Below, piece after piece: positions 1-30,698 of a DNA stretch of 64,000 nucleotides (position 1 is its first letter; each line of letters begins with the position of its first letter). The position numbers and the translations under genes are program-made. This DNA comes from Naegleria gruberi (taxonomy: Eukaryota), in NCBI GenBank assembly GCA_000004985.1, contig GG738862.1; one strand, written 5' to 3'. Under the pieces are notes generated by a model. It did not search any database, was not told the origin of the DNA, and saw only the letters and a list, made by a program, of their open reading frames with translations.

Positions 1-98
1 TGTACGATACGGATAAAACAATTATTGTAATGATTGAAAGAAGTATGAAGGAGGAATTCCATAAATCCAACACTTTTTATTCCATTCTTTCCATTCTT

Positions 99-1418
99 TT
101 ACAAATCAGCTGATTCAACATCAATATGTGGAGTCAATTCATATCTATAGACCTTATTGTTGGAACTTGTTACGAGATATGGGAAACCATAACCACTTGA
201 AATGCGAGAGGGAGATGTTTTGATGATCTTACCAGTGGAAATATCGTATTGAATATAAATGCTGTTTTCTGCTGAATATTCCATTGATAGAATGGTCTTG
301 GAGTCAATTTGGGCAATTACGAGGGCAGAAGTGTCAGTTGACCAAATCAAGTTTGGTTCGTTTGGCAATGGCTTTAAGGAATTTTTATCAAATCTGGATT
401 TGACTGCAATAATCTTTTCTGAGCCTCCAAAACCTGAAGTTATTTCACACTTGACAATTGACGTAATTTCCAAAATATTTCCAGTTTGATTGGCAGTAGC
501 AATTGGATAAGAACAAGCTGAATTAGAATCAACATGTGGCATATGTCTAGTACTCATCACTTCAAGTCTTGTTTCAATTTGGTTTTCAATATTAAGGAAA
601 GATACAGAAATAGAAGTATCGTTTGCTAAAGTAACCGAAACCCATCCATTCACACCACTCACATATGCGATATTATCAATATCATGTGGGAATTTGAATG
701 AAGATATGATCCGACCATCGTTTACACGAATTTTGTGCAAAATGTTGTAATCAGCTGCATAAATGACATCATCCTTGCTATTTGCAGAGTTGACCAAAAT
801 CATTTCACTTCCAGTAACGTTTGCAGTCCACTTCAATTGGAGAGTAGTGGCATCTAAACCAAGAATGGAAGGAGGAGAAGTTCCAATAATGTAAAAATTT
901 TGAGTTTCAGCTAAAACTGAAGTATAAATGTTTGTTCTTTCAAAATGCGAAACTTGGCCGATTCTATTGGAAAGGTCAACTCTGACAATTAAGGAATCGT
1001 CACCACTCAAAAGAATGGTAGCGAAATAATTTCCCTTACTATCAAGACGAGCACTTGAAATACCAACAAAACCATCATACTTTTCAAAATTTGGAATTGT
1101 GACATGAATGAAATTGGACTTGCCACTTGTCATGTCAATTTCAAGCAAAGTAAATGGTTTAAAGGAATATTGAGTGTATGATTTTCCACGTACTGTATCA
1201 AAAACTGTTTCTTCAACACCATTAGTGCCATCATTAGGAAATGGCACTTTAATATTCCATGGAGCATGTTGTTTGTTGAATAAGATTCTGCTAGATCTAT
1301 ACGAATCATAACCTCCCTGGACGAATTGACCATTCACATGCACGTTAATACAGAGGAGTACTACCATCAACAAGAAGGCCATTGCCAACTTGTTTAAATT
1401 GTTTCTAACAATTTGCAT
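99..1418 (-). CDS. hypothetical secreted protein (signal peptide; possible beta-propeller-like repeats)
   Basis: The long minus-strand ORF 99..1664 begins with GTG in the ORF track. The first in-frame ATG is at 1418-1416 (MQIVRNNLNKLAMAFLLMVVLLCINVHVNG, a hydrophobic signal-like N-terminus). No recognisable catalytic motifs. Confidence 0.45.
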   Translation of the reverse strand: MQIVRNNLNKLAMAFLLMVVLLCINVHVNGQFVQGGYDSYRSSRILFNKQHAPWNIKVPFPNDGTNGVEETVFDTVRGKSYTQYSFKPFTLLEIDMTSGKSNFIHVTIPNFEKYDGFVGISSARLDSKGNYFATILLSGDDSLIVRVDLSNRIGQVSHFERTNIYTSVLAETQNFYIIGTSPPSILGLDATTLQLKWTANVTGSEMILVNSANSKDDVIYAADYNILHKIRVNDGRIISSFKFPHDIDNIAYVSGVNGWVSVTLANDTSISVSFLNIENQIETRLEVMSTRHMPHVDSNSACSYPIATANQTGNILEITSIVKCEITSGFGGSEKIIAVKSRFDKNSLKPLPNEPNLIWSTDTSALVIAQIDSKTILSMEYSAENSIYIQYDISTGKIIKTSPSRISSGYGFPYLVTSSNNKVYRYELTPHIDVESADL

Positions 1419-1736
1419 TTTTTTTTTTGATTGTGAAATTCGACACAAGATTACGCTTCGATTTAAACTGTGTGGAATATGCAACGGAGATGAAAAAGGC
1501 AATTTATTTGAAATAATCAAATAGCGTTTTGAAATTGTAGAAATTTGTGCGTCCTTTTTTGAGAATAACAGGGAGTTTAAACTCCCTTTGATTTGCATTA
1601 TGTTTACAATTCTCTCCCGTACTAATTGCCCATAAGGAAAGAAGCGAAAGAATCCAAAGCGCACAACTGAAAAACCTTGATGTTGAGTTGTTTTTGAAAA
1701 CTAAATGTTGTGATTGTTATTGTATAATATATTAGT

Positions 1737-3173
1737 TTATTGTTCATCTGAAGAATCGTCATTCTTTTCACCTGAATTCAAAACTACAGCATCGCTTTCT
1801 ACCTTAATATCCTTTTCAGAGACGAATCTGTCAATATCCTCGAATGCAGATTTAATGCCACTGACTTCATCCATTAAGAATCTGCACAAGTGATTGGTAA
1901 TTTCTCTGAGGGAGAGTTTGTGATTGCTTGCCTTTTCAGTGTACAATTCTTGAATGGTTATTTCTTTGGAATTTTCTGGATAAATTGGAGTTTCAAATAA
2001 TTCAAACACTCTCTTCTTGATACTTTCCTTATCATTCAAATTGAAATGCCAAATTCCATTCATTCTACTCAAAAAGGCCTTATTCAACTTGATATCTTCT
2101 GTGTTATTGGCAGAGAAGAATCGAATAACACCATCAGAAGGTTCAACACCATCAATTGAATTCAAAATATTTGACATTTCATTGGCAGTACATGAATCCA
2201 AGTATCTGTCAAAATCTTCAATCAAAACCACATAGTATTGATTTTGTTTTGGATTAACAACTGTTTCACATTCATCATAACATTCCTCATCACAATCAGA
2301 ACATTCAAATTCCTTCTTCTCTTCAGCAGCTTGTTTGAAAATAATCTTGGAAGGTGTCAGAATTGTCTTGACAGCATCAGAATCCTTAATATGTTGACAA
2401 TCTTTCAAATTGGCAGTGTAAATATCCAAATTATACTTGGTTGCAATGGCACGAGCAAATGATGATTTTCCTGTACCTGGAGGACCATGTACGAAATAGT
2501 TCAATGAACAGCTCTTACCAACCTTGTGCAACTTGTCAATTTTTTGATGAATAATATTGAAATCTCTTTCAAACATGTCAAACTTGTCATCAATACCATA
2601 AACATGGGACTGTTCCAATTCAATATATTGATACTTTCTCATCCAATATTCTTCCTTGACATTGTAGGCATATAAATTTCTTCCAGGTTTTGGACTTCTT
2701 GCATTATTGACATACCACTCTACCAAATTTTGAACTCTTCTTGTAGGATAAACAATTAGAATGCTTTCTGGATAGATGGCCCTTGTTGTTGATCCATTTT
2801 CAGCTGGTCTTTCGATTTCTCTACTCGGAACATAATACACAGCAAGTGAATGTTTCACTCCAGCTTTTGGTCGATTGATCTTTGCAAAATTCTCATCAGA
2901 ATAAGATTTACAATCAATAACCATGGATTCATTGAATTCCAATAAAGTTTCCTCACCTTCCTTTGCAACCAAATGTCTACCCTGCTCATCAACCATCAAC
3001 ATTCTTAATTGATTCTGAAAAGTGGTGTAGAATCGTTGTTGGAAACACCAACATTGACTATCATTATCATAGCCGGCAATAACATGAGGAGAAGGATACT
3101 TTTCCAATAGGAATTTATAATCAACAAAGGTAGAATCAATCTTTGTTATGAGAGTGGTCGAAGAAGAGGCCAT
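1737..3173 (-). CDS. BCS1-like AAA+ ATPase
   Basis: True ATG at 3173-3171 (MASSSTT...). Walker A is GPPGTGKSSFARAIA. A Walker B-like YVVLIEDFD resembles the BCS1 'LLEDID' motif. There is a long N-terminal BCS1-type region. Single exon of 478 aa. Confidence 0.75.
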   Translation of the reverse strand: MASSSTTLITKIDSTFVDYKFLLEKYPSPHVIAGYDNDSQCWCFQQRFYTTFQNQLRMLMVDEQGRHLVAKEGEETLLEFNESMVIDCKSYSDENFAKINRPKAGVKHSLAVYYVPSREIERPAENGSTTRAIYPESILIVYPTRRVQNLVEWYVNNARSPKPGRNLYAYNVKEEYWMRKYQYIELEQSHVYGIDDKFDMFERDFNIIHQKIDKLHKVGKSCSLNYFVHGPPGTGKSSFARAIATKYNLDIYTANLKDCQHIKDSDAVKTILTPSKIIFKQAAEEKKEFECSDCDEECYDECETVVNPKQNQYYVVLIEDFDRYLDSCTANEMSNILNSIDGVEPSDGVIRFFSANNTEDIKLNKAFLSRMNGIWHFNLNDKESIKKRVFELFETPIYPENSKEITIQELYTEKASNHKLSLREITNHLCRFLMDEVSGIKSAFEDIDRFVSEKDIKVESDAVVLNSGEKNDDSSDEQ

Positions 3174-3521
3174 TATATGATTGTTTTGTTTTTCTTTTTG
3201 ATGGTATTTCTTGATAATTTACGAGCTATTTATTTTTAGCATTCAGTTCAAAATATTGAATCTTCATAGTAATTGAACCTGACAGTTCCATGTTGAACCA
3301 TATGGTTACAAATTCTTAGAAATCGTTGACTTAAAAAAGAGGGTTATCACTTAACTATTGCATGAATAAAGGACAACAAACACTTTGGAGGTTGAATCTG
3401 ATGATTCAATTGTGAAAAGAAAAGTACAAGATAAGGAAGGAATAACCAGATCTTGCCTTGCGATTCAACACTAAATTTGCCAACCACTCTCAAAATATCG
3501 TACAAAAACAAAAAGAGTAAA

Positions 3522-3640
3522 AGACTACAGCACCACAGGTTCCCAAGTTGTCTCCAACCTCAGTACTGATGTGGCTCGACGATGCTTAACTTCTCAAATC
3601 GGACGGGATGAGGTGCATTCATCGTGATATGGCCGTAGCC
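3522..3640 (-). rRNA. 5S: 5S ribosomal RNA gene (copy 1)
   Basis: Reverse complement reads GGCTACGGCCATATCACGATGAATGCACCTCATCCCGTCCGATTTGAGAAGTTAAGCATCGTCGAGCCACATCAGTACTGAGGTTGGAGACAACTTGGGAACCTGTGGTGCTGTAGTC followed by a T-run terminator. Identical to the other 5S copies in the window. Confidence 0.9.
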
Positions 3641-4167
3641 ATCCATAACCTCAAAAATATTCTGATGAACAAGCACTGTGATCCTGAGGTAAGTCCATGA
3701 AAATGTTGCAAGTTTGAATATATAGTTTCTCCTTTCAATCCATTCTGTTGATTACTCCTTAATCAAAATCCTTAATCAAAATCTGTAATTAGCAATCAAC
3801 TCAGTCAATTAGAATCACTTCCGAGCTAAATAAATGGAAGAATCAACCTAGCAAAAAACACAAAAGTGCTCCATTCACTTTCCGACTTGATGAAAAAACG
3901 TCCTCGTCCTTCTTCCGTGAGCGCGTTCTAACGTTTTTCAACAACTTGGTGAGCTGCTACAACTACGCACGTTCTTTTTCGTCATGGTGAAAATCCGAAC
4001 AATAGAAAAAGACCGTTGGAGTTTTATCTTCAACATAAATATTGGTGAGACTGCATGAAGGAACAAAAACACAATCAAAAAAAAAAGACTCAACAACTAA
4101 TTGTTCTATTGAAGAACTAACAACAACAAGATATCTTGATATCAAAAGAAAACATTAGAAAATAAGA

Positions 4168-4428
4168 ATGAACGCTGTTATTATTCCATCAAATACTTCT
4201 GCTACTCATAAGAAGATGCATGCCAAGAAACATTCACCCCTATCAGAGAGAAGAACCTTCTCAAGTGAATTAACTGTCAATTTGACTTCAGATAGAACTG
4301 CAATTGCTAATACTGCCAATCCAAAGAAGATCTATCATATGTCTCAATATTATACCAGAGACGAAATTGAAGAAATTTATTTCGAATGGTTGGCCACTAC
4401 TGAGTATATTAAGCTCTATGAAGATTAA
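4168..4428 (+). CDS. small hypothetical protein (86 aa)
   Basis: ATG at 4168. Basic/Ser-Thr-rich ORF with no recognisable domain. It is isolated in a 1.5-kb intergenic stretch and could be spurious. Confidence 0.25.
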   Translation: MNAVIIPSNTSATHKKMHAKKHSPLSERRTFSSELTVNLTSDRTAIANTANPKKIYHMSQYYTRDEIEEIYFEWLATTEYIKLYED

Positions 4429-4671
4429 TTCCTACAAATGAAGATTATTCGAAATAATCACTTGTCATTTAAGGAATTGAAAAGAATTGGTTGTGTTTGT
4501 TAACATCAAGAAAATGAAACGTATTCAATGCATGAAATTATCAAAAAACACTTGTAAATAGTAAACTGCTAATTTAACTTTAAAAATTGATTCCAATTCT
4601 TGTTACTTTTGCCTAAAATACGTGTAATTTAAAGTATACTTTCCAAATTAAATTATGAGCAAAGCCTCAAT

Positions 4672-6892
4672 TCAAAAGGCTAGGGTTCTAATGACACTAT
4701 CTTTATGTTTTGGAGTGTTCTTCCTCAAAAAGTAGTCCTTATCTTGAAAGTATGTTTTAACAATTTTTGCCTTTTGCTTTAAATGAACAAGCTGTGGAGT
4801 AGCATTATTCTCTGAAGGAATAAATAAAAGATCGAGTAAACTAAAAGCATCCATTCTCTTATCCATAGACTTGACCAGTATCTTTTTTTTGATAATGGAA
4901 AGAATGATACTTTCATCATTTGAAAGGTCCACATCTTCCAAATAACCTTCAACAGTCTCTTCATCTTCTAAAAATTCCAACCTCTCCTCATGAATAATTT
5001 CTAACAGAACCATTCCCAATGAATAAATATCGCTCTTTGGGGAAATTAAATTTTTCTCAACTCTCTCAGGAGATCTGTATCCTGCAACATTAAGGGATGT
5101 GTAAAATAGGTTGAGTAGTTTGTAAACTTACCTTCTGAAAAATTCTTTGATGTCAGTGGATTCAAGTTCTTATCTACACATATTCCATCTTCAAGAGAAA
5201 ATTTCGTTGCTATTTCAAAATCTATCAAAAACCAATGCTTATCATACAACACAATATTTTCTGGTTTGATATCATTATGTGTAATTTGGTGTTTTTGTAA
5301 GAAACAGAGCTGAACAAGCAAATCAATGAAAAAAGCCATAATATTAATCTTCTTTCCCTTATTAAAGAACCTAGTCATACATTTACCAGCTAATGAAAGT
5401 GAAAAATTCCCATCAATCATTGGAGCATACAGAGTTAGGAAGTTATATCTTATAGAATCCTCATTAATGTTAATATTTGGTTGGTATTTAATAAAATACT
5501 CAACGCCATTAATTTTCCCCTTTTTGAGAGTTGAGCGGGTTTGGATTGGGTCAAAATTTTTGTCGTATTCTATCAATTGATTGTCTGCATCTAATTTAGG
5601 AAATGAAATTTCATTCTTTTGGTTGGATGACATCATACTTATTTGGCGTTGTGTAGTTAAATATTCGGTAACCTCTTCATTATTTGGATAAATGAGAGCT
5701 GTCATAATTCTAGCAATGAGATGAATTCGATCCATAACAACTTCGTGCTTATAGGATCCAATGAATGAAAGAGTAAAATTTGAAAGAGTTATGGATTTAC
5801 CATTCAAGCTGATTGATGAGCAGTGCAAAGAATACAAATGAGATGCCTGTCTGTCTGTTGTGATACCTAGAACTAATACTTGATTGTGCCATTCCTCAAT
5901 ATCTTTCTTGATAAGCTGCCTCATGGCATGAGAGAGGGCAATCTTCATCTGAGAAATGAGAGCTATAAAGTCCTTGTGGCTGGTGTGACTTTGATAAATA
6001 TCCGGCGAATCTTCTCTGATAACCCTAATGCATTTGTAACTATTTTTAAAAGTAACAATGGTAATATCGTCAGGTCTAAAGTCGGGAATGCTGGCCTGAA
6101 GATTGCCATCCAAACTGCCAACAAAATCTTGAATGCTAGAATTTCTGAACACCTCGAGATTAGTATTTAAAATCAAGTAACTTACGATCCTCCTGAACAG
6201 CCAGAAAAAATAGAGGTAAATCCCATTATTGGAGCAAAATATAATCTGGTAAGTTCCATTTCACTCTCCTCCATTGAATTACGAAATGGAGGGATTATTG
6301 AGCTGAATATTAAATTGTCTATTGTTTTCAATCGAAGATTATAGGATGACACATTATTGGTTGCATCAATTTGATATTCTATATTTTCGTATTTCTTGTC
6401 CAATTTTAGCCCTTCTTTCCTTAACTCATAAATTAGGGTCGAAATATCAGGATTTTGAAGATATCCAAGCAATAATGCTTGAATATTTTCTATTGTTTTC
6501 TTTTTTTCTTCGAATAAAGGATTAGTTTGACTGTTGTTCAATGTGATACCAAAGCCATACAAGGTATATTTGAATATGTTTGCCAGCTTGCTATTGTTGA
6601 TTGAAAAATGAGCAGGAAATTGAACTTTTTTGATATCCTCCAAGTTTGCAATGTTATGGTTATTTACAATATCGTTAAGTTTCCTTTTGGACGGTCTTTT
6701 CAAAGTCTTTTCGTTAATATTGTAAAATTTGGAAACAATATTAAGGGAGACAGCCATTTGCACATTCTCTATGACTTTTTTCTTACAATATTCTTTTTGT
6801 TTGTTAGACTTTTCTGAAGTTTCATTGGAATGTCGGTCATTGATTTTCTTTCGTTTGTTCTCTGCAATTAAGGTGGAAGCTTTTCTTTTCAT
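4672..6892 (-). CDS. protein kinase with N-terminal extension (3 exons, ~709 aa)
   Basis: Model: complement join(6186..6892, 5132..6144, 4672..5081).
- Intron 1 (6145-6185, 41 nt): GTAAGT donor sits at the ORF-track stop of ORF 6182..6937; acceptor gtgttcag; phase 2. It joins in frame to MILNT.../NSSIQDF.
- Intron 2 (5082-5131, 50 nt): gtaagtttac...tgttgcag; phase 1. It joins ...KNFSEG to YRSPERVEKNLISPKSDIYSLGMVLLEI (kinase subdomains VIII-IX).
- Catalytic loop HNDIKPENIVL; DFG appears as DFE; APE as SPE.
- Total 2130 nt = 710 codons.
- The first in-frame ATG at 6892 is assumed; the ORF-track start at 6937 is GTG. Confidence 0.6.
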
Positions 6893-7319
6893 TTTTTTTG
6901 AAAATAATGGCGCCAAAAAGGCTGAGTTGCTGTCCACGTTCTTCTTTTCTTCATCATGTAAGGCAAAAGTATCTCGTTCTAAATTTCTAATGTGATCGAT
7001 ATCATCTGTTTGTGGTTGGTTTTTGTTCTTCTTTTTGGTATTCGATTGTTGGGATGATGCAATTAATTGGAAGAATGGACTCTTTCTTAGTTTTGGTTTG
7101 AATTTTTACACTTGGAGGGTAGAAAGCAAGAATTAGAGCATCATCATTTCAAATGACTTCAGCTTGTAAAGATTTAAATTTACCAAATGATGCCTTTCCC
7201 TGCTTCCTCACCATCCTGCAAATATTGGTTTAAGCTTGAATTACTAAGTAACTCATCTAGAAAATCAGCTGAATGTTTTGCATATCATCATTGATGAATA
7301 TTTTGATGAATACTAGATG

Positions 7320-7950
7320 TGAAGTAATAAGAAGAACAGTGCTGTTAGATAACATCCAGGGGATGTATTCATTATTGTATTGATGAAGATTAACCATGTG
7401 GATGATGAATCGTTATTGTTAGGAAGTATGCAAAAATTCAACTTTCCAATCTCGTAGTTTTAAACAACTCTAAAAACATTAAATTCCCACATCAGGATGG
7501 TACGATAACATACCTTCTCCTGTTGTTGAAATTGAGCAAGTTATAAAGATGTGGTGAAATAATATTCGCACCACATTCTCCAACTCTACTCAAAGGAAAG
7601 TTTTGAGACTTCTTGGATGATGATATTGATCATTTAGAACAAGTATTATAATACATGATGTTCTTGTTGCTCTAGTTGCATCATTAAAGATGAAAATATT
7701 AATATTAATAAATTGATGAAATTATTCTTGAATTAAAACGCTCGGATACACATCATTGGTATATTGATGATTGTTAACATATGATGAAGATTTTAATCCA
7801 TGAATTCAACAAAGGTTTTCATCAGTTAATAATTTGCCTTTTAAAATTCGTAATTCATGATGGAATACAACAAAAACATCTTCCATACATTCCAACTATC
7901 CTATCATGTTGTGTATTAAATGTTTTTTCCCAAAATGAAGACTTGCTTTT
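7320..7950 (+). repeat. dispersed non-coding element R1, copy A (candidate structured ncRNA / snoRNA-like cluster or non-autonomous element)
   Basis: About 80% identical in blocks to 57300..57940, in the same orientation. Shared blocks: tgatgaagatt..gatgatgaat..attgttgggaag..aaaattcaactttccaatct; cctgttg(t)tgaaattga(g/a)caagtt; tctccaactctac; catttagaacaag..gatgttcttgttgc; gatgaaaatattaa.attaataaattgatgaaa; ccttttaaaatt(c/t)gtaattcatg. Many RTGATGA (C-box-like) motifs. No ORF. Confidence 0.45.
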
Positions 7951-8057
7951 GAATGGTGATGAGTAAATTTTTTTAATATTAAATACGTAAAAATATTATT
8001 GTAAAAATTATTAAATATTAAATTAATTTTACAAAATAAAACTATATTAGATTAATT

Positions 8058-19658: not shown

Positions 19659-20786
19659 TCAGATAGTAAAGAATCCATTTTCGCCTTCTTCAATGTTCAA
19701 CTTTTTCTTTTTCTTTCGAAAAACAAACTCTCCATCAAACTTCCAAACCTTTGAATAATCTTTCCATGAATTGAGTGGCATTATCTCACTCAGAATATTA
19801 GAAATGAATTTTTCACAATCCTTTCTAGAGACACGATCAAAGAGAAGCCATCTCTCAAGAAGTTCTGTTGAATTTTTGAGCGAAGTATTCATTCCTTTAA
19901 CAAGAGTCAAGCCATTCTTTCTACTATTGAAATCGTTAAGAGTTTTGTACAAGGTAACGATGCAAGTATATTCAATTGATCTGTCCTCTTCTTCAAATCT
20001 TGAATAGTTGATTTGGAATAGAAACCATTTTGGAGTTCTTTTCGAAAACCAATAGCCACAGTAATTATCAAAAACAGTGTTATTTGCAGGAACTTGCTCA
20101 TCAGTTGTAAAGTAGTCCAGTTTCATACTTGATTTCTTGTTGTAGTCAATAATAAACACTTGATTGACTAGAGATGATCTTTGATAATTCTCCTCTCCTA
20201 AAGTTACAATATTCAAACTATCCAAAGGTGAATAGTCATCATTATCCCAACTACCTCTATCCATTGGAACTAGCTCTCCCTCAATATATCTTACAGGTCC
20301 ACATTTCCTTTGCAAACTCCAAGCTTGCAACTTTTCTCTACCATACAATTCAATAGCTTTGCAATTATTCAGGTCAGTTTTGAAATTAGCACCAATTCCA
20401 TTCAAAATAGGATCCCAGTATTCAAAGTTTGTTCTCAAAGCTTGATTCCAACTTTGACAAACATGATACGGAGGATGAATCAGCAAGTCAATTCCGGTCA
20501 AATATTCACAAATATGTGAAATAAATGGTGCCAATTTCGCACCAAGTTGTTTTGTAAAAGTGGTGGAAAAACTTGTCTGACTATTCTCAAGCAAAACCTG
20601 TATCAGTTGTTCTGCAAGCTCATTGAATTGATTAATACTGTCATCTGTTGATTGTCTTATCAATTCTATAATATTATCAGCTCTAACTATTAATTGTTCA
20701 TCAGAAGATTTTTCGGAATGAGTCTTTCTCTTCTTTGATTCAGTATCTTCATTGAGTGAGTTGTTGTTGTTCCGTTTATTCACCAT
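19659..20786 (-). CDS. hypothetical protein (375 aa), basic N-terminus
   Basis: ATG at 20786-20784. Single ORF. N-terminal NLS-like KRNNNN...KKRK. The ATG lies 1 nt upstream of the stop codon (20782-20780) of the preceding gene on the same strand. Confidence 0.5.
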   Translation of the reverse strand: MVNKRNNNNSLNEDTESKKRKTHSEKSSDEQLIVRADNIIELIRQSTDDSINQFNELAEQLIQVLLENSQTSFSTTFTKQLGAKLAPFISHICEYLTGIDLLIHPPYHVCQSWNQALRTNFEYWDPILNGIGANFKTDLNNCKAIELYGREKLQAWSLQRKCGPVRYIEGELVPMDRGSWDNDDYSPLDSLNIVTLGEENYQRSSLVNQVFIIDYNKKSSMKLDYFTTDEQVPANNTVFDNYCGYWFSKRTPKWFLFQINYSRFEEEDRSIEYTCIVTLYKTLNDFNSRKNGLTLVKGMNTSLKNSTELLERWLLFDRVSRKDCEKFISNILSEIMPLNSWKDYSKVWKFDGEFVFRKKKKKLNIEEGENGFFTI

Positions 20787-23700
20787 TTTTTTGTTAATTT
20801 TCCATTCTTGGGTTTATACTTGAATGCCTCGAAATCAATTTTGGTTCTTGGCATGTTATCTGATAGAGGGACTTGCAGCTTGACTGGAATGTTGGGTACT
20901 TTTTTAGGTACGATATTTGGTTGCTGTTGTCGTGAAGCAAACTCATGATTCGAGGACCTTATTGAATTGTTTGAAGTGTTTGATATGTTGGCATAGTTCA
21001 TTACTGGCATACTTGGTTGAAAGTAAGGTTGTTCTTGATATTGAATTGGTGCATTTCGTGATGTTGTCAGGAATGGCTCAAACTGTTGTTGCTGATGCTG
21101 TGTCCTGTAATTCAAAGGGGGTGCTACATTATTATTTGCAAAGCTATTGAATGGACTATTCATCATAGATTCCACTCTGAAAGCTTGTCTCAGTGGTGTG
21201 AAAGTTTCTCTAGGAGGCTCCTCTTGTATCATTCTCCCCCTTTGACCAAATAATGGAGACGGTGGTATTCTTCTATAAGATTCTTGCACATTTGGAATTT
21301 CATTTACAATCTTTGATTTCTTAAATGGTTGAAAAATTGGTTCTTGGTTAAAATTGTCTTGTTGTGTCAAAGAAAAGAGTCTCTTCTGGTTTATCGACAA
21401 TTCATCAGGAGGCCTCTCAAAAGAGAAAGGGATGGGTTCATTAACGAAAGAATAACTTAGATCTTGTTGTGTAATGAATGAATTAGTAAACGTAGATGGA
21501 TTATCTTGACTAACATCCATCACATTATCTGCCCTATAATGTTCATCCTCTGCTTCCGCTATGTGATTTCTCTCCTCAAATCCATCAAATATTTCGAATA
21601 GAACGTTGTACAATAATTTCTAATATATGTAAATGTTAAATGAGATTATTAAATAACATACCAAGCCAGTCTCTGTGAAATACCTTCCTAGATGTTGTGA
21701 AAATTCTTCATATGATTTCATTTGGCATATTTCCTTGATGGAGTAGTTCTGTACTATTGCTTGTGCCGAAAAGAAATTAACACAAGGGAATTTTGAAAGA
21801 AATGCCTCTTGAGGATTCTCCTTTTCTCTTATCCAAATAATGTCATGATTTAGAGCTTTGGATTGGGCCATTACTTCCACACATATCGAATTGATAATCT
21901 CAGCACTTTGATCCATGTTGTAGCTGTATCTTAAATTCACTTCTATTTGTAAAGATTTAGTAAAGCAGAGGAGAGAGCTAGAAACAAAGGATAAAGAATC
22001 AATAGATATAGTTCCTGCTGAGCTGCTTTCAATAATTACCCAACAGTAGGAAAATTGCAATGCCAGAGAAAGAATTCTATTGAATAAATCAGTAATTTCC
22101 TCTCTGTATGTATCAAGATTGTTGAATTTGTACAGAATGATACAATGCCTTTCATTAATTATTATATCTGCTGGAGAAAACAATGTAGAATTCCTCTCCA
22201 CAACATTAATCGAGAATCGTGATTCAAGCTCAGAAAGTAATTCGTTATTTTGAATACACTTCTCTGTAACAATGATTCTGCTAGATGCTGAGTTTTCTGA
22301 TTTTGATTTAAAACAGTACAGTCTCTCTAGATGGTCCAGTTCTTTGTCTTGTAGTATTGAAAAGCTCTTTTGCTTTTGTAAAATTTGATCAATAATTTTA
22401 GAATTCACAACTAATTCCTTCTCTTTTTTCAGTTTATACTTCAAATTCTTGACCCAAGATTGATTTAGCATGTCCAGTGATGTTTGTGTTTCTTCTCTTT
22501 CTAATCTAGACGATATAGCGAAATATCTCACCATATTTCTGCAAACTAGAGAATATAAAACATCATTATAATCTCCTGGTTCAATTTGGATCAATATATC
22601 TATTCCACTGAAAGCGTTCATATCTGAAATGTTAGCAATGTTGGAAAATGTTGTTAGATAAATATGAGGCTCTGGTTTTAAAACTCCTTCTGATAGTTTC
22701 ATTTCAGTTCCAATATTTAAGCTCTTCAATTTTAGATTATTTTCAACACTGAAGAGAGTAAATATGTTGTGTCCTTCCTCAAAAAAATTGGCAATATCTG
22801 AAAGAACCTTGTTATGCTTGGATAGAATAATTATTTTGGATTTTTCATCATAAAGCTCTTTGGCATGAGCCACTACTGTTTGTGCTTTGGTTTTATCCTC
22901 TATCTCATTGGTTAACTTAACCATTTGGAATGATATTTCTGAAATAGCGCCATCTAAAAGTGTTCGATAGGTGTCTGTTTCTTTAATTTTATCCAAATAA
23001 GCTTTTCCTACAGCAATTCCACCGTCCAAAGTTGCTTCAAAAAGGTACTTGAGTGTATGAAGACAAACAAGCTTTTTAAATGTGGTCCTTGTCTCGATAA
23101 TTCTCTTTGCATCGTTTGAAGATAGAACTACCTTCAAGTTAGTGGCATATTCTTCTACAATCCGTTTTAAGAAGCTGTAATACTATTAGTATTCATTAAT
23201 GTCGAAAGAAACTTACTCTGATTGAATACTCAAGAATTTGATGGACTCAAAACTATATCCCTTCACTCCTGAAATAGAGGACAATGTGAATTCTCCAACT
23301 TTGATAATATTCTCCAAAAACTTTGATGCTTTTCCTGATACAGGCACACTAATCTTTGCAGACAGTTGTGGTGATACATCCATTAGTATTTGCTTTGACA
23401 TTGTCGAGTCAAGCAGATGGGAAAGTTGTTGTATGTCTCTCGAAGGTATGCACGACATGATGATGGTTTGTATATTCTTCTTTGAAATGGAATACATTCC
23501 CTCTACAAATTTTGAAATTGGAATGAATTGATCTTGCTCAATTAAAACATGCTCCTTGTAAACTATTAGGCAACATTTTGAAAGTAATGCCTCCATCCTT
23601 TGAATAAAGCTCTCTGCAATACTTCTAGAAATGAAAAGAACCTTACATTTTTGTGAAATACTTGTAATCTTGGTTGTAAAATTATCCTTTGTTACCATGG

Positions 23701-25891
23701 ATAAACTCTTTGAGTGATTAAAAAGAAAGGATTTGATAAATCTATAGTCTTTCTCTAATCTTGTTTCATCACCGTCTATGTGAATGAACATGGAGTTTGA
23801 GCTACAGTTCTTCAACTTTTGGAGAAGTAGAATACTCTCTACCATTCTCAATTCCTCATCTTGTAGAACTACCAAAGAGTTTTGAACAAGAATGCTCCTT
23901 ACCATTTGAGAGTGTCTTGGCGAGATCTTTACATCTTCTGGAATGAATAACGCCTCTTCCTCATTAGGTTCCTTCTCTTGGAGTGAGGTGGTGGGAATAG
24001 GAGCAAGAGAAGGTTTTTTGAATGTAAGGAAGGCATCTAGATTATCCTCTAAAAACTCATTAAAAACTATCTTCTCTTGTACCTGTATTGGTGATAAATT
24101 TGGCGAATCTTGCTCAATAATAATATTGGTTTCATCCTCTTCATCCTCTTTCTCCATGTCAGTTATTGATGTCGAGTTATAATTTTCAAATTCTCCAATA
24201 TCTACTAGAGTTTCCATAAGTGATTCATACTTGTAGAGTGCGCCTTTTCCATCATCTTGATAATGGCTAACTGTTTCAGAGTAGGTAGATGATTGTTGGA
24301 ATAAATCTTGTAGAAAAAACATATCCTCTGTGGTGAATTCCCTTTCCATCTCCTCTATTTCACTCAACTTGTTAAATATCTTCTCTGAGAATATTCTACT
24401 CCTCGAGTTGGGAGTCATATTGTTTGGAATTTTGAGCACTATCTCTAGTTCCTTATGATCATTGAATAATTCCTTAACAAATGATTCACTAACACTATTT
24501 TCCATTAAACTCAACCCTGAGGCTAGAGATTTGCCATCCAACAATTCAGCTTCCTTTCTAGATAAATAGATAGAATCTGATAGCCATAAATTTTGTAGAG
24601 TAATTTCAATATTTGATGTCAATTTGGGTTTTACAATTTCCTCGATTGGTATTAGTTTGATTGGTACCGGCCTTGCATCTAGAAGAGGACAAGGAATTGT
24701 TCTAATATCATCTGAGTTGATAATTGAATCACTTGAAAATATAGCACTCCTTTCTTCCTGTATTTCCTGTTCAAGATGATTCAAGCACCAGTATTCCTGG
24801 ATAGTTTTTGCGCTATTGGCAATTTCAGAAATTGAATTTTTGGATAATTCTTGAAATGATGCATAGAATTCATCCAAAATGTTCAAATTGTACCTGTGTT
24901 CAATTTCAAGAATTGTATTTTGACAAACATCTTCCATCGTATCGTGCTCAAATATGTCATTATTGTTGTTGTTAGTGGACCTGGTTCCAGCTTTGGACAT
25001 CTCCCTAGACAAGTACTCATTCAAATAGGCTTTAGAAAACTCCAAAAACTTGATGTTCACTTCAAAATTGTACCTATTTGAGCAGTTTGATTCGTTGATT
25101 ATTTCCTCTCCTATAAGTATTGAATCGCTTTCCTCTAATAATTCTTCGAATTGATAACAAACAGGAATCATCTTAATTTCATCAAATGTTTCTTCCTTTT
25201 CAAAAACTCGTTGATTAGAATGTAAACCATCTAGCCAATCATTTGAATAGTCTGTAGGGAGTGAATCCATAGCAACCCACTCGGAAAGCACTCGTTCATC
25301 AATTAAATTTTCCACAGCCTTACTCTCAGGTTTACAATTAAATTTTGTTTTTTCCAGTAGTGTGGAAAATACAATAGAAGGATTGTAAAAAGGTTGACAA
25401 ATCTCTTCCGAAACCAATAGATGACAATCTAATATTTGTTCCTTGCTCTCTGACAAGTCATAATAATCAAGATAGTCTGAATATGCTTCTCCACTCCTTG
25501 TTATCGGCAATCTGTCTGTATTGAGAATAGATTCCACTTCATTCATCTCTTCCTCCTCAAGTAAATCCGTACAGATCATGTCCTCGTATGATTTTAATTG
25601 TTGAACACTTTCAATAGGATCCTGACAAGGACATGAATATTTATCTATTCGAAAAGCAGTATTACATTGTTAGATTATTAATATTAAATTCATTCACTTA
25701 CCGTTCATCATTAATTCTCTAGCCTCAACAAGTAAAATCTGATCGTATTCCTTGATGTTTGTTGGAAACTTTTTCAAAGGCTTGTCATCTTGAAGTGAGC
25801 AGGGAAGTTTAACTTGACAAATTCTCTCCAATCTGAGTTTAATCCTCTCAGTATGCATGGAATGATAGTCCTTGCAACTATGCTCAAACAT
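20780..25891 (-). CDS. large hypothetical protein, 4 exons, 1656 aa (Q/N/P-rich C-terminus)
   Basis: Model: complement join(20780..21619, 21662..23174, 23217..25644, 25702..25891).
- ATG at 25891 (MFEHSCKDY...).
- Introns: 25645-25701 (57 nt, GTAAGTgaatg...ttcgaatag, phase 1); 23175-23216 (42 nt, GTAAGTttct...tattacag, phase 2); 21620-21661 (42 nt, GTATGTtatt...atatattag, phase 0).
- This links four ORF-track ORFs; total 4971 nt = 1657 codons.
- No recognisable domain by eye. Confidence 0.6.
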
Positions 25892-26202
25892 TGTTACGTA
25901 GTTGAGTAGTCAATCAGTAGTTTTGATGATGGCAATTTTTTTAGTGGTAATCACAATTTAAGGCTTTGAAATTTTGGAGGGAAAGTTGTTAATGTTCACT
26001 CCACAATGTAATCAGTCACTCAAGAATCACCTTGATATTGTTATTAGAGTATTGCTGTATAAATTCACTCATTATCATTGTATTAATATTATGATAGGAG
26101 AGATATTTCAAGGTCATCCTCATCAATAAGTGTCTTTTGCATATTATCTACGAAAAAACTAGCTGTTTAAAATCTGTAAATCATCAAATAAAAAGGAAGA
26201 AA

Positions 26203-26661
26203 ATGAGCGCCAACAAACACAAAACCAAGGAGGAACGAATGGAAATTGTCAATGAATATCTTCAACAACAAAAGGAGAAGGAAGCAGTTAAGGCCCAAAG
26301 TGATTTATCGTTTTCGATATGGAAGGTAGGTTGTAGTGGTTAACCTCAATTTTCATAAATGATGTGATGATAAAACCTTGATGATGATGGAAATTAATTG
26401 CATGTAGAGAATCAATCCAGGATATGTTGTTCCAACAGAAATTTATAAATCAACAACAAAGGATACTTTTGTGTAAGTAGTCAATTGTTCGGAAAAGCTG
26501 AAAAACTTGATAGTCCTCAATATTCGGATCCAATCGATAAGTCCTACAATAGAATGTTGGACAAGGCAGCTCAGTGGAATGAAGAAGATTTAAAGACTTT
26601 TGGTAAATTAACTTCGGCAACACCAAAGGCTGCCAGTGAGAAGAAGCCATGGAAATTCTAA
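26203..26661 (+). CDS. small conserved-looking protein, 3 exons, 111 aa (function not recognised)
   Basis: Model: join(26203..26325, 26408..26472, 26514..26661). Introns 26326-26407 (GTAGGT...catgtag) and 26473-26513 (GTAAGTagtc...cttgatag). The product is MSANKHKTKEERMEIVNEYLQQQKEKEAVKAQSDLSFSIWK-RINPGYVVPTEIYKSTTKDTF-V-PQYSDPIDKSYNRMLDKAAQWNEEDLKTFGKLTSATPKAASEKKPWKF. Total 336 nt = 112 codons. Confidence 0.5.
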
Positions 26662-27019
26662 ATTATTCCAACTCTTTATACTAGGAATCATCATGTTGAT
26701 GATTGTGAATCCGATGGATTGAGTACACAAGATGATAGAGTAACGAACGTTATCTCATGTGCCATTTACTTGTAAATCAAAATTAATTATTGTACTATTA
26801 ATAAACTGTAGAAAAATTAAATGTTATTATTTCCAATAGTATCACACATGATGTCCTCCAAAATTGTTGTGATGATGAAGAAGATATCTTGGTGAAGGGA
26901 CACAAAACTGTCATTCTTTTATTCTGTCAAAAATGCCTTGCCTAAAAACTTTATTGTAAACTACACTACCTCCAAGTCATCCAAAAATTTTAAAAGTTTG
27001 TTGAAAAAAAAATCGTAAA

Positions 27020-27352
27020 ATGGTATGTATCAGTCACCTCATCCTTTTTTCTTACACCACAATTATCAACAATCTTATTTCATCATCAAAATTATAGCCA
27101 AAGCAAATCTTGAACGTTAAGGAATTCCTTGCTCTTGCTGTTGCCGCTAAGGAAAAGGGAAGCATCACCCTCTACAAGTCAAAGGACAGAAAGAACAGAT
27201 CATACAAGTTCAAGCTTAGAACCAGACAATACCTTTACACTTTGAAGATGAAGAACAAGGTTAAGGCTCAACAATTGGAAAAGGCTCTCCCACCAACTTT
27301 GAAGAAGTCTTACATTAACCACCCAGAAAAGAAGGAAACCAAGAAGCAATAA
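27020..27352 (+). CDS. RPL38: 60S ribosomal protein eL38
   Basis: Model: join(27020..27022, 27098..27352). The ATG is followed immediately by a GTATGT intron (27023-27097, ...attatag). The exon-2 product, M-PKQILNVKEFLALAVAAKEKGSITLYKSKDRKNRSYKFKLRTRQYLYTLKMKNKVKAQQLEKALPPTLKK..., aligns to eL38 ([46 protein letters not shown]...LPPGL). Confidence 0.8.
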
Positions 27353-27700
27353 ATTTGTTCTCTAAATCTTAAAATTAAAACAAGTTGAGAATATTTTGTT
27401 GTTAATTATCAAAGCACAATAGTATCATTGTCTAAAGATATCAAGCAAGGATATTTATCTTCTACTTTTCAAAATAATTCACTCTTGTTGTTTTGGAAAA
27501 TACTTTAATACACTCGAATTTTAATGGAAAAGGATCAAGAATCATCTTGAAGATTTATTTGCCTAGATTCAAAGTATTACATTCTATTGTTTTGGTTGTG
27601 ATAGGAATATTGAGAAGGGAAGATTGGTGTGAAAACAAATGGAGGTAATAGGTGTTCTGGTGTTCAAAATCATGTCTAAATCACATCTCGAAAAAGCCGA

Positions 27701-28057
27701 TCATCTCTTTGGATTTCTCAACACTAAAATTACAGAATCTCCTCTCAAAAACAACTTGTTTGTGAAACGTGTCTTGTTGATTGGCTTTGACTTTTTTCTT
27801 CCCTTTCCACTTTTTGGTTGTTCCGTCCACATTTCCTGTACATTTTCCAATACCATATTACAGTGTCTATCAAAGGCTTTAACTCTAGCCAACAATTTTC
27901 TATTATTTCTACAACTAATTAAAATTTGTGTTTGTTCACGAACACTTTCCAACAATAACGAGAGTGGTCCCTTTTCAAATAGTAATTCCTCTTCCTTTTC
28001 CAATTCCTCAGCAGTCTTTTGTGGAGCTTCTGTGGTGGCTGCTACTGTTTGCGACAT
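27701..28057 (-). CDS. SNRPD2: small nuclear ribonucleoprotein Sm D2
   Basis: ATG at 28057-28055, single exon, 118 aa. Sm motifs: [50 protein letters not shown]...[17 protein letters not shown]...[12 protein letters not shown]. Near-colinear with metazoan SmD2. Confidence 0.85.
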
Positions 28058-28324
28058 GATAAATTATTGTTGATGATGAATAATTGATTATTTTTTGATG
28101 ATTGGAAAATTCTTTAGAAAATTTTTATTAATTTTATTTGATCAACGAGCTTGTGAGATGAAAATACAACACATGGAACAAAGAAAATTACATTGAACAA
28201 GTAGTAAATTAAATGTTTTAGCACTCCTAGTTAGAATCAATGATGAAATATTAAGAACAAAGAAAGTTGTTAGTGATGTTAATGATATGAAGTATTTGAA
28301 AGGAATTAAAAAAGATTGAAAAAA

Positions 28325-29449
28325 ATGATGATTAACGATAATGAAGAGGAGGCTTTTAAGGATGATTTTCCTCCACCACCGGCATTCTATAGATTGTATC
28401 ATCCAACAAAGAGTGAATATATTCCTCCAGAACCACCTAAACCAGTTCCTAGAGGAGAAACTTATATATCATTCGGAGAAACATTAACATCTTTTGTAAG
28501 TTTTTGCTCCTCCTGATGTAAATAATATTTAACAATATATGATGGTGTTGTATGGTCATGTTGTGGATCAAAATATTCATCAAATTAAAATTATTATTGG
28601 AATGGAATTAATATTTTGTTTAAATTATTATCATCATCAAATTGGATCAATTTATTATTGTTTATCGATAATATTTGGATTGAATTATTTACCATCCTAC
28701 TATTTATTAAATAGAATGAATTTAATCCAATCAAATCAGGATTTGAAACTGTTAAAAAGCTTTACGGTGATAAACCACTAGATAGTATAGATCATGTTGC
28801 GGAATTGAAAAAACTAAATAGATCTTTATTGTACAATTATTTGGAATTGTTGGATTTGCTGATTGAACATCCAACCCTTCAAGTGAATGAAACTGAGGAT
28901 ATTTCAACAATTACAAATTTTGATGGATCAAAGACCATTGTCAAGTTTTGTTGGGAATTGAAATTACATCAAATCGAGTTAATTTTCATTAACATGTCAT
29001 TCCTGTTAAATTATTATAGACCTCATCAAGCTAGAGAACAAATGATAACAATTTTACAAAACCAATTAAAGAGAAGAAAGGAAGTCACAGAAAGTGTGGG
29101 AGATTGTATACAATATTGTCACAAGGTGCTCAAAGAGGCCCAAATGACACTGACGAGTATTAATTTACAAGAGGATGTATTCTTAAAGACTGTTGCTTCA
29201 GAACCAGCTGCTTCTTCAGTATTGGAAAATGATAGTTCCATGACTGATTTTTATATGGGTCAATCAAACCCAAGCAAGAGAAAGAGAGAAGATGGCATGC
29301 AAGATGAGGATCAAACATTAACATCCTTCACACATGACTTGAATGGATTTGGATCAACAAGTGGTAGACAACATGACAAGAAACATAAGGATACTAATGT
29401 TAGTGTTGTGGATATTAATGATGAAATCATGCAGGAATTTTTCCAATAA
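28325..29449 (+). CDS. MED7: Mediator complex subunit 7 (MED7), 2 exons
   Basis: Model: join(28325..28495, 28715..29449). Exon 1 encodes FPPPPAFYRLYHPT...PPKPVPRGETYISFGETLTSF. A 219-nt intron (GTAAGTttttgc...ttattaaatag) follows. Exon 2 encodes NEFNPIK...DHVAELKKLNRSLLYNYLELLDLLIEHP...LLNYYRPHQAREQMITILQNQLKRRKE, which matches the MED7 core (KLNMSILINFLDLLDIL...NEYRPHQARETL). Confidence 0.65.
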
Positions 29450-29596
29450 TTTATTGTATATAAAAAGAGTTTTTGAAAGATGATGGTAATGAGCTTTTAA
29501 TTTGGATTCTACTGAGAATTATTTTGATCGATAAGATGGACATCCTAATTCGATTTAAGATAGATACTGAAATAATGCAGGAATTCTTCTAATAAT

Positions 29597-30139
29597 TTAT
29601 TCGAGCCTCTTCCTTACAATTGAATTATATTCTGAAAAGTGATTTCTAAACTTGCTCAATTTCAAGTAAATCATCCACAAGTGACCTAGCAAGCCACCAA
29701 ATCTTTCAGAATGCACCAATCGACATGAATTCTCACTCTCTTCTACCACTTGGAATGTATGCTCTCCGCTAAATATTGGAAACCATTTGAATCCAACAAT
29801 TCCCTTCCATCCAAAGATAAACTCTTCCTTCTCATCTTGTTTTGACACGTGCCACTTCCACAATCGAGCATTCATCACATTATCCTCAGTGAGAATTGAA
29901 ACTCTGAATGGTATTTGTTCCAAGTGTGGTGTTAAAATTGCATTTGGATCAGTAACTAATCTCTTGGCGAATACTTCCTCCAAATCCAAGCCATTTCCGA
30001 GAGATTCCCACTTGACAACCATTCCAATTGGATAGTGTTCTCTCTTGGTTATATATTCAAACACCTCACTTGCTGGCTTGTTGATAATGATTGAGCTGCT
30101 TACTACTTTCTTCCAAAATTCAACAATTGGTTGATTCAT
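29597..30139 (-). CDS. SRPBCC (START/Bet v1/COQ10-like) fold protein, hypothetical
   Basis: ATG at 30139-30137. 180 aa with the alternating beta/long C-terminal helix pattern typical of SRPBCC proteins. Assignment is by pattern only. Confidence 0.4.
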   Translation of the reverse strand: MNQPIVEFWKKVVSSSIIINKPASEVFEYITKREHYPIGMVVKWESLGNGLDLEEVFAKRLVTDPNAILTPHLEQIPFRVSILTEDNVMNARLWKWHVSKQDEKEEFIFGWKGIVGFKWFPIFSGEHTFQVVEESENSCRLVHSERFGGLLGHLWMIYLKLSKFRNHFSEYNSIVRKRLE

Positions 30140-30698
30140 TTTTCTTATTCGTTTTATTAATAATTAAGGGTTTTGTTCGAGTTGTTTTTTTGTTGTCTTG
30201 TGTAAATCTAGTTACTGTCTGACAAACGCTATTGCAGTATTTATTTGAGAAGCTATAATAGCGCAGTGTTTCTTTGAGTCGTTCAATAGGCGAATTGTGG
30301 AAGAGTGCGAATGAAGACAGTTTGAATAATTGAGCGTTTCTATTTTTGGATCCTTACTGGTTTACGGGATTCTTTAGAAGGTTGTGGGTTAATTTTGCTG
30401 AGGTGAACAAGTGAGAGATTAAATCGTCTATGAGATTTTATAAGATTGGTCCAATTCTCTCTCAAGATTTACAAAAGGGCAACAAAATGAAACAGTATTC
30501 GAAGGTTACAAATTTTACAGAGATTGAAATCACTAAATTTCAAACCTAAAAAGGTGGAATGACGGAATGAAGCTCCCGTCAATTGCCATCAAGTAAAACA
30601 TCTATTCTGTTTTCGTCCCTTACCAACTTTGATGACCTTATTGGGTAATTATAAGCGTTGTTTAGTTTTGAGAGAAACAAAAATTATTCAGAAAAAAT

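Follow-up and report, generated by a model that had tools for sequence, protein, structure and literature searches.

A duplicated non-coding element rich in TGATGA words in a gene-dense stretch of Naegleria DNA

Two sequences of roughly 650 to 700 nucleotides, lying on the same strand about 50 kb apart, are paralogous copies of one non-coding element in the Naegleria DNA analysed here (64 kb in all, termed "the window" throughout). The copies lack the hallmarks of small nucleolar RNAs (snoRNAs), of structured RNAs and of transposons, and they show only weak constraint. The reading we prefer, to which we assign a probability of about 0.45, is an old local duplication of non-coding DNA in nearly neutral decay, the copies being either a low-copy repeat or fragments of a dead gene. 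One ancestral segment of 650-700 bp would have given rise to one further copy within some 50 kb on the same arm of its chromosome, and after the duplication both copies would have decayed near-neutrally. They may now represent a low-copy dispersed repeat or a dead fragment, that is, a piece of a former gene or of a non-autonomous element with ends that are no longer recognisable, and their many TGATGA(A) words would have been inherited from the ancestor. We infer both the neutrality and the relic origin from a comparison of the two copies, and the evidence on either side is laid out below together with the alternatives. As it stands, the element adds one more low-copy duplicate of non-coding DNA to a gene-dense protist genome.

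Extent, surroundings and divergence of the two copies

Blastn aligns positions 7320-7953 of copy A with 57301-57953 of copy B (E 2.4e-89, 70% identity over 670 columns), and the identity amounts to about 72% over 628 aligned nucleotides. A nhmmer profile built from both copies found no third copy in the 64-kb window. Both searches bear out an earlier note on this DNA, made by eye from the letters, in which the element was described as present twice and in the same orientation. The homology, as judged from the alignment, starts at 7320 and 57301 (TGAAGTAATAAGAAGAACA / TGAAAGAACAAGAAGAACA) and closes with a T-run, 5' of which both copies carry TGATGA(G/A)-(GT)AAA. Between these ends the conserved blocks of the pair are AAAATTCAACTTTCCAATCT, TTCTCCAACTCTAC, TGCCTTTTAAAATTYGTAATTCATG and TATCCTATC (Table 1).

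Table 1. Coordinates of the two copies, of the words and predicted stems within them and of the neighbouring 5S rRNA gene
Feature	Position in the window	Strand	Remarks
Copy A, non-coding repeat	7320-7975	+	about 656 nt; aligned to copy B; stops in every frame
Copy B, non-coding repeat	57301-57997	+	about 697 nt; aligned to copy A
Hairpin 1	7336-7378 (copy B: 57317-57359)	+	RNAalifold pairs 17-22/54-59 and 29-37/43-50
First two TGATGA(A) words, copy A	7381-7409	+	TTGATGAAG at 7381, GGATGATGAAT at 7402
Three tandem (T)TGATGAAG-type words, copy B	57362-57390	+	10-nt period; Tandem Repeats Finder TTGATGAAGA x1.9
Unit 1, copy A	7396-7492	+	AUGAUGA; 20-nt block AAAATTCAACTTTCCAATCT; terminal complement ATGTGG/CCACAT; no CUGA
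Unit 1, copy B	57379-57467	+	terminal complement GTAG(AT)/(AT)CTAC; CUGA at 57446
Hairpin ATGTGGTG / CACCACAT	7549-7576	+	copy A only; read directly
Conserved inverted repeat	7636-7664 (copy B: 57639-57659)	+	6-bp stem AGAACA/UGUUCU; loop 17 nt in A, 9 nt in B
Further words, copy A	starts 7617, 7689, 7714, 7765, 7781, 7857 (degenerate), 7957	+	
Further words, copy B	starts 57620 (degenerate), 57669, 57683, 57710, 57780 (degenerate), 57962, 57983	+	
T-run closing the homology	7968-7974 (copy B: 57991-57996)	+	read from both copies and the alignment
5S rRNA gene	57038-57156	-	Rfam RF00001, 105.4 bits; outside the repeat

Outside the homology borders the flanks of the two copies are no more alike than shuffled sequence, and none of the open reading frames (ORFs) around one copy is paralogous to those around the other. 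Only the unit of about 650-700 nt was therefore copied, and a larger segmental duplication is rejected on the same two grounds. Likewise rejected is an origin by tandem repetition, since Tandem Repeats Finder reports a single short array in copy B and nothing else.

The window has a G+C content of 33%, is gene-dense and follows the standard genetic code, and some of its genes contain short GT...AG introns. Naegleria genomes are gene-dense, have 33-37% G+C and confine their rRNA genes to an extrachromosomal plasmid (PMC12482156). An alternative genetic code was considered and dismissed, the standard code giving 40 ORFs of at least 150 aa and up to about 1600 aa. The RNA genes of the window comprise four identical, dispersed 5S rRNA genes, one tRNA gene and one U1 candidate (35473-35641), with no 18S or 28S rRNA gene among them; a PPR-E-DYW protein and DUF4116 proteins are encoded as well. 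Genes on the minus strand lie beside both copies (ORF 6185-7105 beside A, 56215-56946 beside B), and a plus-strand gene (58086-59129) lies beyond copy B. According to the earlier note copy B directly abuts a 5S gene and the start of a protein gene; in fact the 5S gene is located 144 nt to its left, and the likely ATG of the protein gene about 130 nt past its end.

Parts of the surroundings are recognisable in relatives. The RPL38 gene at 27024-27352 is 87% identical to RPL38 of Naegleria fowleri, and the order of a large gene, a 117-aa gene, RPL38, LSM, Med7 and IFT20 is kept between the two. This synteny spans 20.7-33 kb of the window, and the RPL38 locus lies 20-30 kb from either copy. The AAA ATPase encoded at 1740-3173 has 95% identity, within its aligned part, to a predicted protein of N. 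gruberi, and it is 100% identical to one encoded on a metagenomic contig; this contig agrees with the window at 98-99% and ends at window position 6001, before copy A. Together these matches place the window in a Naegleria of the N. gruberi group, in keeping with the published genome features cited above. In N. lovaniensis the region around the AAA gene shows no synteny with the window. The examined loci of N. fowleri and N. lovaniensis and the metagenomic contig neither cover nor contain the element.

Divergence between the copies follows no coding rhythm. The substitutions fall into 86 transitions and 89 transversions (a ratio of about 1), mismatches are spread evenly across the three phases without 3-nt periodicity, and about a dozen gaps of 1-11 nt each, or about one indel per 50 nt, are mostly not multiples of three. 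Small non-triplet indels, a transition/transversion ratio near 1 and even mismatches point to near-neutral divergence. All six frames carry stops in A and in B, and the longest ORFs within the copies reach 42-65 aa, none of them common to both, in agreement with the earlier description of the copies as free of ORFs.

Some unevenness of conservation counts against a relic. The earlier note had pictured conserved blocks interleaved with divergent stretches, and over all aligned columns this pattern is real: nine identical runs of at least 12 nt are observed against 3.3 expected (P 0.0014), the longest of them 22 nt, and the blockiness as a whole has a P of about 0.002. Inside four long ungapped blocks, each end trimmed by 4 nt, it is marginal (P 0.049), and the excess over all columns arises in good part because bases are misaligned around indels. 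The over-represented runs over all columns are evidence against the relic reading nevertheless; taken as a whole, the signal of constraint on the element is weak.

Coding past and mobile-element hallmarks

One homologous minus-strand frame is poor in stops, with 8 in copy A and 7 in copy B where about 17 would be expected (P 0.04 and 0.012, respectively), and the phase in which one copy is read relative to the other is back at one value over 64% of the alignment. Such a frame would fit a former ORF. Its changes by codon position number 22 at third, 26 at second and 37 at first positions; as third positions change least, there is no sign of selection at the protein level, and the distribution, which is not the one predicted for a coding past under selection, weighs against the relic reading. 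Protein-coding genes or pseudogenes are rejected because the copies show no periodicity, have an anti-coding pattern of codon positions in that stop-poor frame, match no Pfam family in their conceptual translations and have no intact paralogue elsewhere in the window. A plus-strand ORF of 32 codons is common to both copies (MMKILIHE... in A, MMWVLLLQ... in B), and by a hand count 13 of its codons carry amino-acid changes versus 3 with silent changes only. An exact look-up of three small ORFs within or overlapping the copies and of two neighbouring genes returned no match. The "ORF" that translation table 6 opens on the minus strand at 7268-7903 is not real coding sequence, and a selenoprotein or other UGA recoding is rejected as well, given that TAA or TAG stops persist in every frame.

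Were the copies two old mobile-element insertions, whether solo LTRs or non-autonomous DNA transposons (MITEs), the rest of the family would reside elsewhere in the genome. The sharp homology borders between unrelated flanks speak for such an origin, as do the length of 650-700 bp, a size typical of LTRs, and the TG with which both copies start; repeats moreover make up 7-8% of Naegleria genomes (PMC12482156). The ends tell otherwise. Terminal inverted repeats joining the homology ends are absent from both copies, and neither has a consistent target-site duplication at its borders. The sole long flanking direct repeat, the 10-nt TCTTTCATCA found around copy B at 57171-57180 and 58020-58029, falls outside the homologous part, by 120 nt and 22 nt. 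Both copies end in the T-run and not in CA, Pfam detects no coding remnant in them, and there are only two of them in 64 kb. We regard a mobile element as unlikely on this balance. The element resembles low-copy dispersed or segmental duplicates and solo LTR or MITE relics in that its two copies share an orientation, are sharply delimited and about 72% identical, differ by frequent small indels and bear little mark of constraint; unlike solo LTR or MITE relics, it is devoid of terminal inverted repeats, target-site duplications, TG...CA ends and a coding remnant. The term "non-autonomous repeat", used for it in the earlier note, hence holds only when taken loosely, for a dispersed repeat of low copy number; the MITE hallmarks (terminal inverted repeats and target-site duplications) were looked for and are absent.

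The preferred reading of a decaying local duplicate does not pass through these results unscathed. That neither inverted repeats, target-site duplications, LTR ends nor a coding remnant identify a mobile element is evidence against a relic too, and a rare repeat would hardly be expected to occur twice in 64 kb had its duplication not been local.

TGATGA words and their possible meaning

The most conspicuous feature of the copies is a short word. Multiple RTGATGA motifs resembling the C box of snoRNAs had been pointed out before, and each copy indeed contains four RTGATGA and 7-8 TGATGA on the plus strand (8 per copy-containing interval), whereas TGATGA is found 0-1 times on the minus strand. 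Compared to a background in the window of 1.2 TGATGA per kb per strand, the copies are about 9-fold enriched; TGATGAA is enriched 14-fold and is the sole strongly enriched word. About half of the non-coding TGATGAA words of the window fall inside the two copies, and the other intergenic DNA of the window holds 14 in 13.3 kb, which equals the density in coding DNA. Neighbouring TGATGA motifs are separated by gaps of 20-215 nt. Roughly half of the TGATGA(A) words occupy one aligned site in A and B, and the rest are private to one copy.

A bias towards one strand has a mundane parallel in the coding sequence of the window. In its real ORFs the 6-mer GATGAA occurs 42 times in sense and 11 times in antisense orientation, 35 of the 42 being in the phase that encodes Asp-Glu. 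GATGAA is thus mainly a sense-strand coding word, and its excess on one strand is not by itself a sign of C boxes. Conservation between the copies gives a mixed picture: three of seven TGATGA sites are conserved, which is not significantly above other 6-mers (P 0.19), four of five GATGAA sites are (P=0.01 versus other 6-mers), and conservation within 15 nt of the motifs (0.649) equals that elsewhere (0.647, P=0.46). Since sites and flanks are not clearly better kept than the remainder and half of the sites are private, the excess of motifs would have been inherited from the ancestor and is not visibly maintained site by site.

It is possible, if unlikely, that the words serve as an array of protein-binding sites. 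The copies would then be paralogous Pol II genes for a putative non-canonical, unstructured non-coding RNA with about eight UGAUGAA sites for an RNA-binding protein, which could be a K-turn protein of the L7Ae/Snu13 type or some other factor, and by analogy such an RNA would serve as a decoy or scaffold rather than guide methylation. Its models are NORAD with its Pumilio sites, the Schizosaccharomyces pombe meiRNA bound by Mmi1 and the CsrA-binding RNAs CsrB/RsmZ, with which the element shares a short motif repeated about eight times on one strand of poorly structured, non-coding sequence, and here the paralogous copies have kept the number of motifs. Unlike in these RNAs, the motifs of the element are not preferentially conserved, and the likeness is no more than an analogy. 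The strict strand bias (about 8 per copy on the plus against 0-1 on the minus strand), the constancy of the motif number (7 and 8) despite turnover of sites, an enrichment that is specific to the element and not that of a general promoter word, a low degree of structure compatible with a protein-binding RNA and the blockiness over all columns (P 0.002) are all in favour of such an array, and so is a possible homologue of one of its parts, described in the last section.

The neighbourhood adds to this side of the balance. With its four 5S genes and U1 candidate the region abounds in small-RNA genes, which also weighs against a relic, and the 10-mer CATCTAGAAA, which lies 43-52 nt upstream of the U1 candidate, recurs at 7254-7263, that is, 57-66 nt upstream of copy A. 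Against the array stand the absence of CATCTAGAAA upstream of copy B, the lack of a conserved 3' stem-loop after the T-run, the conservation of motifs and flanks at the level of the rest and the fact that ancestry alone explains the motif excess. We know of no motif-array RNA in Heterolobosea. If transcribed, a motif-array RNA lacking D boxes would add a new kind of non-coding RNA to those of Discoba.

Another alternative is a cis-regulatory module, in which a homotypic cluster of TGATGAA sites, a promoter or an enhancer, would have been duplicated as a cassette. Both copies are located in the 5' intergenic space of a minus-strand gene, and copy B in addition upstream of the gene at 58086-59129; turnover of sites at a stable count is typical of clusters of binding sites. 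Yet the neighbouring genes of the two copies are unrelated, the 5S gene intervenes between copy B and its minus-strand gene, a bias to one orientation is unusual for clusters of transcription-factor sites and the remaining intergenic DNA of the window shows no enrichment of TGATGAA. These points make a regulatory cassette very unlikely.

Box C/D features, predicted folds and unit 1

The main idea of the earlier note, a snoRNA cluster, can be spelled out as a polycistronic set of canonical box C/D snoRNAs, in which every UGAUGA would serve as a C or C' box and the conserved blocks would act as rRNA guides. The number of motifs on one strand and their spacing suit such a cluster, as does the terminal stem of one segment, unit 1, in which a single pair shows a compensatory change (GC in A, AU in B); Rfam returns weak C/D matches below threshold (E 0.45-5). 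In the related Euglenozoa, snoRNA genes are usually clustered. What is missing is the second half of the signature. The D-box word CTGA occurs 0 times in copy A, where 2.2 are expected, and its two occurrences in copy B (57446 and 57912) are aligned to CTAA and TATT in A, so that they are not conserved. Nor are the bases just 5' of CUGA conserved in those C...CUGA pairs of copy B that have a snoRNA-like spacing, which leaves no conserved guide in the expected place, and the identical 20-mer AAAATTCAACTTTCCAATCT is followed 3' by neither a D-like nor a D' box in either copy. A search for terminal stems at each C-like box (about eight units) found a stem in both copies for unit 1 only, and that stem adjoins no D box.

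A permissive Rfam search of each region gave no match better than E 0.02, and all were far below the gathering scores: the best C/D matches scored 17-24 bits against gathering scores of 38-70 (E 0.45-8) and were driven by the C box, and the top snoRNA match reached 23.9 bits against 42 (E 0.45). The search with covariance models that had been suggested as a check on the snoRNA proposal yields chance-level matches only. Because the rRNA genes of Naegleria are plasmid-borne and absent from the window, complementarity was gauged against unverified versions of the 18S and 25S rRNAs of Saccharomyces cerevisiae, of the correct lengths (1800 and 3396 nt), and the outcome is a lead more than a formal test; with this query, counts and lengths of complementary stretches on both strands of both copies equal those of shuffled sequence, and no box-adjacent antisense stretch of at least 11 nt is common to both copies. 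A scan of the whole window for guide plus CUGA against the same yeast rRNA produced no excess over shuffles and no genuine Naegleria snoRNA as a local example, and the literature searched contained no published catalogue of Naegleria snoRNAs. Box H/ACA features are absent too, with no segment beating shuffles, no H/ACA match in Rfam and a very weak consensus fold.

Known polycistronic C/D clusters (yeast snR72-78 and those of Euglena and trypanosomatids) thus share with the element RUGAUGA-like words on one strand of about 650 nt without ORFs, weak structure and, in one unit, a short terminal stem; they differ from it in their D and D' boxes, their geometry of guide plus box, their similarity to Rfam families, their detectable rRNA complementarity and the terminal stems of their other units. 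A canonical snoRNA cluster, as proposed in the earlier note, is highly improbable, and clusters of C-box-like TGATGA words are insufficient to call snoRNAs.

The second part of that proposal, a structured RNA, was founded on stems. Of the inverted repeat first noted, the stem is indeed conserved and the loops differ by an 8-nt indel, but the arms given for it, AGAACAAG and CTTGTTGC, are complementary at 6 of 8 positions only, and the 6-bp stem AGAACA/UGUUCU is uninformative because it is identical in both copies. The second hairpin is present in copy A and confined to it; opposite 7549-7576, copy B carries 11 inserted nt, and its bases there are unrelated and do not align. The argument that a conserved stem with a divergent loop marks a functional RNA accordingly reduces to one invariant 6-bp stem and a hairpin of copy A.

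The upper stem of hairpin 1, GAUA.CAUC/GAUG.UAUU, is invariant between the copies, and its basal stem (ACAGUG/UAUUGU in A, ACAUCA/UGGUGU in B) contains two changes on both sides, which weigh little, the structure having been predicted on the same two-sequence alignment. Together with the pair in the unit-1 stem, these three both-sided changes are evidence against a relic. Over the whole element, changes on both sides affect 9 of 113 predicted pairs on the plus and 10 of 111 on the minus strand, and such equal "compensatory" counts are expected of two sequences with a structure predicted from their own alignment.

Eight segments, tested in both copies and on both strands, fold no better than dinucleotide shuffles (z +0.40 to -1.92), including unit 1 (0.02 in A, -1.9 in B) and the segment around the inverted repeat at 7636-7664 (-0.9 / -0.5). 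The consensus minimum free energy over about 700 columns is -47.7 kcal/mol on the plus strand, a very weak fold, and -57.8 kcal/mol on the minus strand; in sliding windows the consensus energies range from -1 to -13 kcal/mol per 120 nt. With no excess stability and so weak a consensus fold, the reading of the element as a folded RNA fails its tests. Of the earlier interpretation as a whole, the low-copy repeat survives in its loose sense, and the snoRNA cluster, the structured non-coding RNA and the MITE do not.

Other RNA classes were tried and rejected. Hammerhead ribozymes, SECIS elements, U3, U4, U5, 5.8S and 5S-derived sequences have no Rfam matches here, and the resemblances seen by eye are 8-10-mers at chance level. 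A telomerase RNA was suggested by size and by the U-run at the 3' end, but neither the template CCCAAACCC nor any of its variants occurs in the window; the candidate telomeric repeat of N. gruberi is TTTGGG (PMC3622300). An RNA of the Sm class is rejected as well: AAAUUUUUUCC at the 3' end of copy B is similar to the Sm-like site in the U1 candidate, copy A differs there, and a conserved 3' stem-loop is lacking. A single Pol III transcript is unlikely because of internal runs of T4-T6, the 5S genes of the window ending at T4-T5.

It is clearly unlikely, in our estimate, that the copies represent genes for a lineage-specific C-box array RNA of Heterolobosea without D boxes, whose first module, composed of AUGAUGA, the invariant 19-20-mer AAAATTCAACTTTCCAATC and a terminal stem, would be an independently conserved small RNA found also in an unrelated metagenomic eukaryote. 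Two scans of viral contigs for homologues gave nothing useful. Among the 108 contigs obtained in a metagenome scan with an 18-mer of the element, only one, L107, which comes from another organism, has additional similarity (17.4 bits versus 11.6 for the next, P ~0.02 by a rough tail estimate). This similarity weighs against a relic, and L107 as a homologue of unit 1 is an unproven candidate, proposed from the order of short matches. The contig contains no CUGA and no other part of the element. Its matches follow one another as in unit 1, namely AUGAUGAA, AUUGUUG, the same 19-mer and AAAA.CAUUG, and it has a terminal complement of its own (CAATGA/TCATTG), which is placed differently from the unit-1 stem.

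Flanks and minus-strand frame of the repeat copies

Copy B of the two-copy non-coding repeat is bracketed by a perfect 10-nt direct repeat, TCTTTCATCA (57171-57180 and 58020-58029), the arms of which lie 120 nt and 22 nt beyond the sequence shared with copy A and the reverse complement of which contains TGATGAA. No counterpart of this direct repeat was found at copy A. Between copy A and the LRR/F-box gene, 81 nt (7977-8057) lead from the repeat's end to that gene's stop codon; at 7% G+C, this spacer is much AT-richer than the other intergenic DNA of the window (26-34% G+C), and it forms inverted repeats composed of A and U only.

The minus strand of both copies carries a homologous frame (7320-7976 and 57301-57998) with few stops in about 220-230 codons, namely 8 in copy A (P = 0.04 versus shuffles) and 7 in copy B (P = 0.012). 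Several stops of one copy align with Gln codons of the other, and the distribution of changes by codon position does not have a coding look.

Small RNA genes and a shared upstream motif

Coordinates of several features in and beyond the window are compiled in the table.

Coordinates of the features (window positions unless a contig is named)
Feature	Position	Strand	Remark
Unit-1-like sequence	L107 205-318		metagenome contig ERZ1034377 NODE_40560, 1317 bp
10-mer CATCTAGAAA	7254-7263; 35684-35693		upstream of copy A and of the U1 candidate
U1 snRNA candidate	35473-35641	-	Rfam 47.9 bits, E 6e-9; below the gathering score of 69.5
5S rRNA genes (n = 4)	3522-3640; 35200-35318; 52679-52797; 57038-57156	-; +; +; -	
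Rearranged 5S pseudogene	37245-37287; 37308-37377		two fragments
PPR-E-DYW editing-type protein	39200-42825	+	DYW deaminase domain, E 3e-34
Secreted-type protein	54176-56035	+	about ten Cys-rich repeats

The four 5S genes are identical and scattered across 54 kb among protein genes. Both plus-strand copies are immediately preceded by the motif (A)TTAAGGAA.TGAAT, and at the copy starting at 57038 approximately 24 additional bases separate this motif from the gene. The pseudogene combines a 3' fragment with an oppositely oriented 5' fragment.

The U1 candidate starts at its 5' end with AUACUUACCU, harbours the Sm-like site AAUUUUUUCC and is convergent with the 5S gene at 35200-35318, 155 nt downstream of which it is located. 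Upstream, TATAAG is located about 30-35 nt from the candidate, and CATCTAGAAA occupies positions -52 to -43. The same 10-mer is found 57-66 nt upstream of copy A and was not found upstream of copy B; its recurrence may be coincidental (chance roughly 0.01-0.03), or the 10-mer may act as a proximal promoter element.

Related sequences in other DNA

L107, a metagenomic contig of another organism (about 42% G+C), is the outlier among 108 contigs that have in common an 18-mer of the conserved block of unit 1, the first module of the repeat. Its unit-1-like sequence contains AUGAUGAA, AUUGUUG, the identical 19-mer AAAATTCAACTTTCCAATC and AAAA.CAUUG, is flanked by CAATGA/TCATTG and is enclosed by short ORFs on both strands.

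The metagenomic contig L112 (ERZ929261, PRJEB11402), from a near-identical Naegleria strain, matches window positions 29-6001 at 98.0-99.4% identity and lacks 2866-3616, a segment that comprises the 5' part of the AAA ATPase gene, a spacer and most of the first 5S gene. This gap stems from a deletion in that strain or from collapse of the assembly. Between window positions 20783-33215 and N. fowleri (VFQX01000006.1), micro-synteny is kept over at least 12 kb around RPL38, in the order large gene, 117-aa gene, RPL38 (with an intron directly after the ATG), LSM, Med7 and IFT20. Synteny is lost on the left side, with an ABC transporter at this place in N. fowleri.

Protein genes with repeats

Naegleria is known for the peculiarity of having DYW proteins as a non-plant organism. 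Here, tandem repeats of about 305 bp (39965-41738), which encode more PPR-like units, precede the PPR-E-DYW protein. In the secreted-type protein the Cys-rich repeats have the pattern CS.C..G W.G..CS.P.CDSKC..C, and their spacing alternates between 126 nt and 90 nt.
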